NCBI GenBank assembly: GCA_039091855.1
Contig: JAWCLA010000010.1
Coordinates: 1 to 21,730, forward strand
Source of the DNA: Candidatus Aenigmatarchaeota archaeon
GTDB taxonomy: Archaea; Aenigmatarchaeota; Aenigmatarchaeia; QMZP01
Direction: 5' to 3'
DNA: 21,730 bases
Positions 14,518 through 17,551 of this stretch are shown in pieces (the stretch's first letter is position 1; every line of letters starts with the position of its first letter). The position numbers were made by a program, and so were the translations under genes. The notes below the pieces were generated by a model. That model saw only the letters and a list, made by a program, of their open reading frames with translations. It did not search any database and was not told the origin of the DNA.

Positions 14518-14661
14518 GTAAAGTCTTTGGGATCTCAACCCTTTCTTGGAAAGGGCTGAAATTATATGAACCAATTGCACTGTTATAGTAAAGTCTTTGG
14601 GATCTCAACCCTTTCTTGGAAAGGGCTGACGGGGGTTCGGCCCTTTTTTCAAAAGGGCTGA
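14518..14661. repeat. Two exact 42-bp direct repeats plus a third degenerate hairpin, directly upstream of tRNA-Gly
   Basis: GTAAAGTCTTTGGGATCTCAACCCTTTCTTGGAAAGGGCTGA at 14518-14559 and 14588-14629; then TCGGCCCTTTT-TTC-AAAAGGGCTGA at 14637-14661. Confidence 0.9.
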
Positions 14662-14663
14662 TT

Positions 14664-14821
14664 GCGTGGGTAGTCTAATGGTAGGACGTCACCCTGCCAA
14701 CTCAGGGCAGCTCGGTGGCAATGCGGGTTCGATAAAAGCGAAGTCGGAACTGAAGCTGGAAGGTGTCATCTGACGCCTTCTGTCGGAAATCCGCCTTCCA
14801 TCGAAACTCCCGCCCTACGCA
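14664..14821 (+). tRNA. tRNA-Gly(GCC) with two introns (37/38: 14700-14712; 59/60: 14734-14807)
   Basis: Acceptor GCGTGGG/CCTACGC, D stem GTCT/GGAC, anticodon stem TCACC/GGTGG, loop CT-GCC-A|C, T stem GCGGG/CCCGC, discriminator A; splice helices CTGC/GCAG and TTCG/CGAA each followed by a 3-nt bulge. Confidence 0.9.
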
Positions 14822-15431: not shown

Positions 15432-15700
15432 GCGGAGGTAGCGAAGTGGACAAACGCGCGGGACTCAAGAGCCTAGGGAAGGCTTCATAGCTCCTTCGGC
15501 TAGTCCGAAGGTGGCGAAGCCACCTTCCCCGTCAACAATAGCAAGGCGAAAGAGCCATCCCGTGGCTTAGTGCCTTCGTCGGTTCGAAAGCCAAGCCTTT
15601 TCCAGGAGCTTCCGCTTCCACAAAAGGCTAGGGTTTACCCAAAAGTTAAACACAATTAACTGTTAAAGCGATTGACTTTGCGAATATCCGGCCCTCCGCA
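15432..15700 (+). tRNA. tRNA-Leu(CAA) with two introns (37/38: 15470-15556; 59/60: 15589-15686)
   Basis: Acceptor GCGGAGG/CCTCCGC, anticodon stem CGGGA/TCCCG, loop CT-CAA-G|A, long variable arm GGC-TTAGT-GCC, T stem GTCGG/CCGGC, discriminator A, followed by a T-tract; lies upstream of rpl18e as in many archaea. Confidence 0.92.
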
Positions 15701-17121: not shown

Positions 17122-17222
17122 GGGATTAGCATGGAATCCGTAATATCAATTAAAGTTTTTGGGGTAAGGCTTAGACCTTTTGTGGAAGCGGTAGCTCCTG
17201 TAAAAAGGGATTAGCATGGAAT
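17122..17222 (+). repeat. 16-bp direct repeat of the rps10 start region
   Basis: GGGATTAGCATGGAAT at 17122-17137 and 17207-17222. Confidence 0.85.
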
Positions 17223-17551
17223 ACGCTCGAATTAAGCTTGCTGGAAGAAACATAGAGGAATTGAACCAGATATGCGAGGAGATAAAGGAGATAGCAAAGA
17301 GGCACGGAGTTTCCATACGCGGGCCTATGCCATTGCCTACAAAGAAACTGAGAGTGACAACATTGAAGACACCCTGCGGTGACGGAACAGGGCACGGAAA
17401 CGCGACATGGGACAGGTGGGAGATGAGGATTCACAGGAGGATTGTGGACATAGGAGCGAACGAGAGGGCATTGAGGCAGGTGGTAAGAATCCCGATACCG
17501 GAAGGCGTTAAGATAGACATAGAGCTTAAGGAAAAGTACGAGCATCACTGA
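17216..17551 (+). CDS. rps10: 30S ribosomal protein S10
   Basis: [24 protein letters not shown]...[12 protein letters not shown]. Confidence 0.97.

Follow-up and report, generated by a model that had tools for sequence, protein, structure and literature searches.

The 87-nt intron at position 37/38 of a tRNA-Leu(CAA) gene contains what looks like a second complete splice site, which raises the question whether an archaeal intron can hold another protein-spliced intron entirely within itself and whether this inner segment is removed first. The gene is located in a window of 21,730 nucleotides (the whole stretch of DNA that was analyzed), which is contig C2 of the Candidatus Aenigmatarchaeota genome G000 (689 kb, 38 contigs).

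Using default settings, ARAGORN found no tRNA (0) in the window, and no Rfam match (0) reached the gathering score there. After removal of the insert in the T-loop, ARAGORN identified tRNA-Leu(caa) with an 87-nt intron. The acceptor stem (15432-38/15693-99) and the T stem (15578-82/15688-92) could be read from the window sequence. The three exons are matched by two metagenomic alleles, one without introns (L048) and one in which the T-loop intron is the sole intron (L043), and therefore both intron boundaries are secure. The sequence of the locus was also present in hot-spring metagenome runs, and no RNA run was listed among the runs containing it. The coordinates of all features are given in Table 1.

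The splice motif of the 87-nt host intron is of a relaxed type and consists of CTC 15464-66 paired with GAG 15552-54, an A-A mismatch and the helix GCCT 15471-74/AGGC 15544-47, which is offset by 3 nt. The 98-nt T-loop intron has a TTCG/CGAA central helix with the bulges AAA and TAT and is without an inner helix. The orthologues use the same 59/60 site for their T-loop introns.

Table 1. Features of the tRNA-Leu(CAA) locus (positions in the window)
Feature	Position	Strand	Remarks
tRNA-Leu(CAA) gene, two introns	15432..15700	+	exons 15432-15469, 15557-15588, 15687-15700; discriminator A at 15700
Host intron, position 37/38, 87 nt	15470..15556	+	relaxed splice motif
Strict hBHBh' motif	15476..15529	+	outer helix 15476-82/15523-29, central helix 15483-86/15516-19
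Candidate inner intron, 33 nt	15489..15521	+	predicted from the motif; cut after second base of each bulge
First local hairpin of tandem fold	15470..15501	+	15470-73/15498-501, 15475-79/15492-96, 15482-84/15489-91
Competing hairpin, 9-bp stem, GAA loop	15507..15527	+	part of the minimum-energy fold; member of dispersed repeat family
Repeat-unit tail, CCGTCA ... CAAGGCGAA	15528..15550	+	86% identity over 44 nt (hairpin + tail) to G001:C95:2140-2183
Second intron, T-loop 59/60, 98 nt	15589..15686	+	boundary ambiguous by 1 nt

Within the host intron, a strict hBHBh' motif could be identified. The outer helix GGGAAGG/CCTTCCC comprises 7 and the central helix CTTC/GAAG 4 Watson-Crick pairs, and the two bulges ATA (15487-89) and CCA (15520-22) are 3 nt long each. 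The inner helix GCT/GGC (15490-92/15513-15), the last pair of which is G-U, continues above a bulged T at 15512 into 7 further bp (15493-99/15505-11) with a loop at 15500-04. The intron 15489-15521 was independently recovered by a custom BHB scanner with a length of 33 nt and a score of 36. In a preliminary description of the locus, this strict BHB, a weaker motif for the host intron and a hairpin competing with the BHB had been proposed. Every coordinate of the BHB proved correct, both by reading the sequence and with the scanner, the host motif has the CTC/GAG helix, the mismatch and the offset GCCT/AGGC helix as described, and the competing hairpin is likewise present.

Archaeal EndA cuts after the second base of each bulge. 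This rule agrees with the strict-BHB orthologues in G010 and G014, for which the spliced product equals the intron-free allele. The canonical tRNA intron at 37/38 is said to be a strict hBHBh', as reportedly laid out by Marck and Grosjean in 2003. According to the text of PMC7714728, a strict BHB is defined by a 4-bp helix, two 3-nt bulges and flanking helices. In the inner motif, the two 3-nt bulges lie on opposite strands with exactly 4 bp between them, and the flanking helices exceed the minimum of 2 bp on both sides (7 bp outside, 3 + 7 bp inside). The motif shares with the canonical intron a stem and 7-nt-loop context and a place equivalent to 37/38 of an anticodon arm, whereas its host helix is a 7-bp intron hairpin instead of the anticodon stem and it has no functional exons. 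The segment lies wholly inside the intron 15470-15556, interrupts no exon, and its removal restores no functional RNA; the mature tRNA-Leu is identical with or without the inner cut.

Next, the rarity of the motif was analyzed. In dinucleotide shuffles of the 87-nt intron, a score of 36 was reached in 0 of 3,000 sequences, and a BHB of any score (helices ≥3 bp) occurred in 87 of 3,000. When only the two 7-nt junction strands were permuted, all four pairs were obtained in 0.45% of the trials, or in 0.2% if only Watson-Crick pairs were accepted. Genome-wide, 23 BHB hits with a score of at least 36 and a length of up to 80 nt were found in 1.38 Mb (both strands), several of which represent one repeated element. 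The nested motif is more than composition alone gives. The fairest chance control is less favorable and uses neighboring copies of the hairpin repeat to which the competing hairpin belongs (see below), taken in pairs from other parts of the genome. A BHB is formed by slippage in 4 of 30 such pairs, one of them scoring 41, and the base rate for such a sequence is therefore a few percent and not 0.1%. At looser thresholds, nested BHBs were not enriched in the 50 introns of 28 tRNA genes (4,012 nt), with 15 observed compared to 13.4 ± 5.1 in 100 shuffles. The nested motif of tRNA-Leu(CAA) was the best of these 15.

These numbers bear on the explanation that the geometry arose by chance and is never used, so that the 87 nt would be removed in one step via the relaxed outer motif by a broad-specificity endonuclease and the intron would fold locally into two hairpins, of which one would be a copy of the repeat, either selfish or structural. 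The lack of enrichment and the slippage BHBs in 4 of 30 tandem repeat pairs agree with it, whereas the junction permutation (p about 0.002-0.005) argues against it. Contigs from four hot-spring DNA runs contained neither the joint nor an indel across the motif. The sole variant within the motif, A>G at 15479 in contigs of two runs, keeps a G-U pair both in the outer helix of the BHB and in the rival first hairpin and does not discriminate between the two.

For the comparison with related sequences, 22 distinct tRNA-Leu(CAA) orthologues were analyzed, derived from 6 related genomes, 14 metagenomic loci (2 truncated) and 2 further species representatives. The 37/38 intron is absent in two of the 22 and has a length of 15 to 121 nt in the others. 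The GGAAGG...CCTTCC module was found only in G001 and G002, both of the same genus, while the introns of two further members of this genus, G003 (46 nt) and G004 (15 nt), are without it. The nested arrangement is absent from 20 of the 22 orthologues, G003 and G004 included. No such nested motif was found in L050, in which tandem hairpins are present.

In G001, the 7+4+3/3 geometry and the length of 33 nt are the same as in G000. Of the 11 pairs of the outer and central helices, 8 are identical, none is broken and 3 show changes on both sides, 2 of these in the central helix. For the 9 pairs of the competing hairpin, these numbers are 7 unchanged, 1 compensatory and 1 broken. All pairs were counted on a gap-free alignment, and apparently broken pairs in the inner hairpin are an indel artefact. 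With two informative sequences, the covariation alone is perhaps worth a p of 0.05-0.1. For G001, the structure of lowest energy (−32.7 kcal/mol) is the nested fold, including the central helix and the 3′ bulge, and a slipped register is impossible there. A strict register that is kept with compensatory pairs and is of minimum energy in G001 speaks against a geometry that is never used. G002 was considered as further support and not counted, as only 3 of the 4 central pairs can form there, in a register shifted by 2 nt, and the BHB fold lies 4.7 kcal/mol above the minimum at 37°C.

An allele lacking exactly 15489-15521 was not found among the 22 distinct orthologues, and neither the 67 retrieved loci nor the genome contain the predicted 15488/15522 junction. 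The precise presence or absence of the segment among relatives, which the preliminary description had put forward as a check, was thus not seen. TGATGA-like boxes were detected in the 37/38 introns of the tRNA-Leu(CAA) loci L058 (G003), L040, L042, L046, L054 and L061, and these introns may encode box C/D guide RNAs. In other archaea, the tRNA-Trp intron encodes a box C/D guide RNA.

The structure predictions revealed two competing folds of the host intron. In the tandem-hairpin fold, the first local hairpin competes with the outer splice motif, as the pairing 15470-73/15498-501 replaces GCCT/AGGC, and 15461-65 pairs with 15502-06 and not in the anticodon stem. For the anticodon arm with the intron in G000, the energies at 37°C were −41.0 kcal/mol for the tandem-hairpin fold and −40.0 kcal/mol for the BHB fold. 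In the isolated arm, the probability of the BHB decreased from 0.046 at 37°C to 0.035 at 60°C and 0.012 at 75°C. In the full precursor of 271 nt, the pair probability of the competing hairpin ranged from 0.99 (37°C) to 0.82 (80°C) and that of the BHB pairs between 0.006 and 0.086 (37-80°C). The competing hairpin therefore dominates the predicted ensemble, an outcome that the preliminary description had itself named as speaking against the inner BHB, and both the minimum-energy fold and the ensemble fit an intron of two local hairpins that is removed in one step. The same full-precursor model gives the anticodon stem a probability of only 0.014-0.04 and the T stem of 0.40-0.03; since the anticodon stem is indispensable, this model cannot be trusted to exclude anything.

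When the outer motif was enforced, the probabilities at 37°C were 0.003 for the competing hairpin and 0.13 for the strict BHB, and those at 55°C were 0.03 and 0.10, respectively, an order which reverses at 70-80°C (0.23-0.39 compared to 0.04-0.01). In G000, the best nested fold has a slipped register in which the central helix comprises 6 bp; it is 0.8 kcal/mol better than the strict one. After removal of the 33 nt in silico, the minimum-energy fold consists of the anticodon stem, CTC/GAG, a 3-nt 3′ bulge and GCCT/AGGC, and a clean 7-bp stem with a 7-nt loop is left in G000 and in G001. Before excision, the model gives the outer motif a probability of 0.25 in the arm and about 0.01 in the full precursor. 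As modeled, either the nested fold or excision of the 33 nt permits the formation of the anticodon stem together with the relaxed outer motif, and only after this excision are they predicted to be the minimum-energy fold. The tandem fold leaves both unformed, which weighs against an unused inner geometry, and because of this some refolding is needed in any case. Being local, the tandem hairpins would be expected to fold earlier than the nested structure while the RNA is transcribed.

The two folds are nearly isoenergetic, and in the model their balance shifts with temperature. This would suit another purpose of the segment, namely a temperature-sensitive switch timing the maturation of tRNA-Leu, or the release of a 33-nt (circular) RNA, as excised archaeal introns are circularised according to the text of PMC7714728. 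Such a purpose is the least probable of the explanations considered here, given that the 33 nt differ considerably between G000 and G001 (31 of 54 positions identical over the module), that no Rfam match was found and that the module is missing from the genus members G003 and G004.

Based on the structure predictions and the one congener, we tentatively favor a nested, possibly gated excision in two steps as a plausible reading. The 87-nt intron would be a bistable RNA made of GAAGG...CCTTC hairpin modules from a dispersed repeat. Local folding would give the two tandem hairpins. In the alternative fold, the 5′ arm of the first module would be paired with the second module's 3′ arm and the two arms between them with each other, and the 7-nt strands left over would form a 4-bp helix between two 3-nt bulges and thus an exact BHB. 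The nested fold or the loss of the 33 nt would allow the anticodon stem and the relaxed outer motif to form. The splicing endonuclease would most likely cut at the inner motif in those molecules that adopt the nested fold, and a fraction of the precursor would thus mature stepwise, losing first the 33 nt and then the remaining 54 nt, to yield an unchanged mature tRNA.

The stepwise, conformation-gated splicing proposed in the preliminary description is compatible with everything computed here, whereas the dominance of the competing hairpin in the predicted ensemble and the lack of a relative with the precise deletion do not favor it. The use of the outer motif alone, with the inner geometry due to chance, is nearly as likely as the two-step excision. 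A further-reaching version, in which the inner BHB intron is spliced first, its removal or the nested fold lets the outer motif and the anticodon stem form, and the whole represents a protein-spliced archaeal counterpart of a twintron and a selected folding gate in part of this Aenigmatarchaeota genus, appears rather unlikely.

The motif probably originated from a repeat dispersed over the genome. The repeat unit in G000 consists of AAGGCGAA, 8-9 nt, a hairpin GAAG...GAA...CTTC and then TCCGTCA, and about 50 copies (97 strand readings) with covarying stems were found. The copies often form intergenic tandem arrays with a period of 68-82. These arrays terminate 4-8 nt ahead of start codons, which places AAGGCGAA at the position of a Shine-Dalgarno sequence. 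Copies of the repeat are located at C4:8880-9360, C12:15116-15281 and C13:8950-9050 and on C33, C36 and C38 of G000, as well as at 15507-15550 and 14759-14779 of the window. No match to the arrays was found in Rfam at E ≤ 1.

Members of the repeat family share a stem of 7-9 bp starting with GAAG and ending with CTTC, a GAA-type loop and the 3′ tail TCCGTCA ... CAAGGCGAA. The stretch 15507-15550 shows all of these traits and matches many loci of the genus, with BLAST copies in G000, G001, G003 and G004, and a copy in G001 (C95) immediately precedes a start codon. A copy of the dispersed repeat thus makes up the right half of the BHB motif. The conservation of the competing hairpin as a repeat unit, with stems that covary across dozens of loci, fits an inner geometry without any use in splicing. 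The repeat unit straddles the putative 3′ cut site of the inner intron and does not end there.

A BLAST search of the intron against its own genome gave copies of the hairpin part only; neither the 33 nt nor the left half of the intron occurs a second time. Other tRNA introns of G000 contain repeat hairpins as well, once in reverse orientation (tRNA-Met). Between the otherwise near-identical alleles of G002 (L060) and L041, the T-loop intron differs by a clean indel of ~35 nt, which corresponds to a single GAAGGCG..CGCCTTC hairpin located in the apical loop of the intron hairpin. This is direct evidence that the hairpin element moves as DNA. The record of BHB-like motifs around hairpin inserts in T-loop introns is mixed, as such a motif was found in L053 (strict, outer helix of 9 bp) and G004 (3 of 4 central pairs) and none in L041.

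The 7 x 7-nt junction of the nested motif follows from the architecture of the repeat, as it is composed of 4 upper-stem bases and the 3-nt loop, and only the 4-bp staggered helix is extra. Repeat membership, the boundaries of the units and the indel suggest that the intron became longer as repeat hairpins were added to it at the DNA level. Judged by the sequences, the BHB is a property of how two repeat hairpins pair with each other, and the inner motif was more likely built from repeat hairpins than inserted as an intron. It would most likely have come from repeat hairpins colonizing the intron and less likely have been a free-standing intron once, and it may since have been selected for helping the outer site to form.

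The preliminary description had also read the locus as a record of one intron inserting into another, that is, a free-standing 33-nt BHB intron would have entered the loop of a 7-bp hairpin in an older intron. This history is improbable and the weakest part of that description, since the boundaries of the repeat do not match those of the inner intron and hairpins insert as DNA. The clean 7-bp stem and 7-nt loop that remain in G000 and G001, the BHB-like motifs of L053 and G004 and the transposition of introns between tRNA sites in Thermoproteales would be in line with it. It is opposed by the lack of an orthologue without exactly this segment and of a second genomic copy, by the repeat unit crossing the 3′ cut site and by repeat inserts that are without a BHB in L041 and reversed in tRNA-Met.

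For the Thermoproteales, intron transposition was reported by Fujishima et al. (2010), as described in the text of PMC4090602. Similar modules in introns of different tRNAs and positions, suggesting a spread at the DNA level, are common to both systems. The spreading unit found here differs in being a hairpin repeat with abundant further copies in intergenic arrays and with ends that miss the BHB cut sites.

For the identification of the enzymes that could act on the inner motif, the genome G000 was searched for splicing endonucleases. Two ORFs with PF01974 hits were found, a 408-aa ORF with two catalytic-domain hits (C19:129-1355, as L063) and an alpha-like ORF of 198 aa (C12; L062:1204-1800). 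The 408-aa endonuclease aligns over its full length with PDB 4fz2 (E 1.5e-97), which is the apo form of the ARMAN-2 epsilon2 enzyme (text of PMC12397907). The epsilon2 type has a broad specificity according to the text of PMC5829648 and was described in a 2018 paper as known only from Micrarchaeum and relatives. By sequence similarity, G000 encodes an epsilon2-like endonuclease outside the Micrarchaeota. Furthermore, an RtcB ligase is encoded (561 bits), and the host thus has both a splicing endonuclease and the ligase.

An enzyme of the broad-specificity type fits a genome of multiply interrupted tRNA genes. In the 28 tRNA genes of G000, which were obtained with a custom search for acceptor and T-arm sequences, a T-loop (59/60) insert was found in 25 and a further intron near the anticodon also in 25. 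In comparison, unaided ARAGORN with introns allowed found only 4 tRNAs in the whole genome, and no tRNA above the Rfam cut-off was found there. The isotypes given by ARAGORN after in-silico splicing are partly unreliable ('Stop tta', 'Phe aaa') and were used only for intron counts. Many other introns of G000, for example the T-loop introns, have relaxed motifs without an inner helix, and their splicing from such motifs is in favor of a removal of the 87 nt by the outer motif alone.

In the nested pre-tRNAs of Crenarchaeota studied by Sugahara et al. and Tocchini-Valentini et al., each intron reportedly interrupts the mature tRNA sequence. These pre-tRNAs with multiple nested introns (Sugahara 2007 and Tocchini-Valentini 2009, as cited in the texts of PMC3978253 and PMC3728597) demonstrate that ordered, nested BHB splicing is already known. 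They contain several BHB introns each, and the last motif can form only once the others have been removed, which results in an ordered splicing. In contrast to these experimentally studied cases, the inner candidate of tRNA-Leu(CAA) lies wholly inside another intron, its removal is needless for the mature sequence and its splicing is predicted only. In the open-access literature, no report of a BHB intron wholly inside another intron was found, only nested introns that each interrupt the tRNA body.

Introns within introns are known as twintrons from Euglena plastids, where they are group II/III introns, self-splicing ribozymes of which the inner one must leave first. The arrangement and the sequential removal are similar to those proposed here, whereas the self-splicing mechanism is unrelated. 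A BHB outside the exon context of tRNA or rRNA was described for the 5′ UTR intron of HVO_1309 in Haloferax, which was discovered by circRNA-seq and confirmed in vitro, and archaeal endonucleases cut BHB motifs in tRNA, rRNA and 5′ UTR alike (both according to the text of PMC7714728). The inner motif of tRNA-Leu(CAA) would be a comparable target of the same endonuclease, with the difference that the cleavage is predicted only.

If the inner motif is cut, it would be the first case found in open-access text of a protein-spliced archaeal intron entirely within another one. The endonuclease would then act on whatever BHB an RNA offers, and splice sites could evolve in the interior of introns. Repeat hairpins that colonize introns would be raw material for new BHB introns, which bears on intron gain in archaea. 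If it is not cut, the locus is a warning that tandem repeat hairpins yield perfect-looking BHBs by slippage. In either case, the setting deserves attention, with a 0.7-Mb genome, nearly all tRNA genes multiply interrupted and an epsilon2-like endonuclease outside the Micrarchaeota.

A second multiply interrupted tRNA gene of the window is tRNA-Gly(GCC) at 14664-14821. Direct repeats and hairpins are located just upstream of it (14540-14663), and on the minus strand this element contains a strict BHB-like motif at 14617-14644 with a score of 41. The same upstream element was also found beside tRNA genes on C6:4650-4850 and C7:5775-5872.

In the T-loop intron of tRNA-Leu(CAA), a core (window 15593-15644) is formed by the stem CCTTTT...AAAAGG followed by a CTAGGGTTTACCCAAAAG-like sequence. 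This core is common to several tRNAs and to other families of the order. Copies in G000 were found at C19:8448-8515, at C1:10622-10688 and at about 17130-17240 of the window (minus strand), one of them outside any recognizable tRNA. The core may be an embedded small RNA or the core of a mobile intron.
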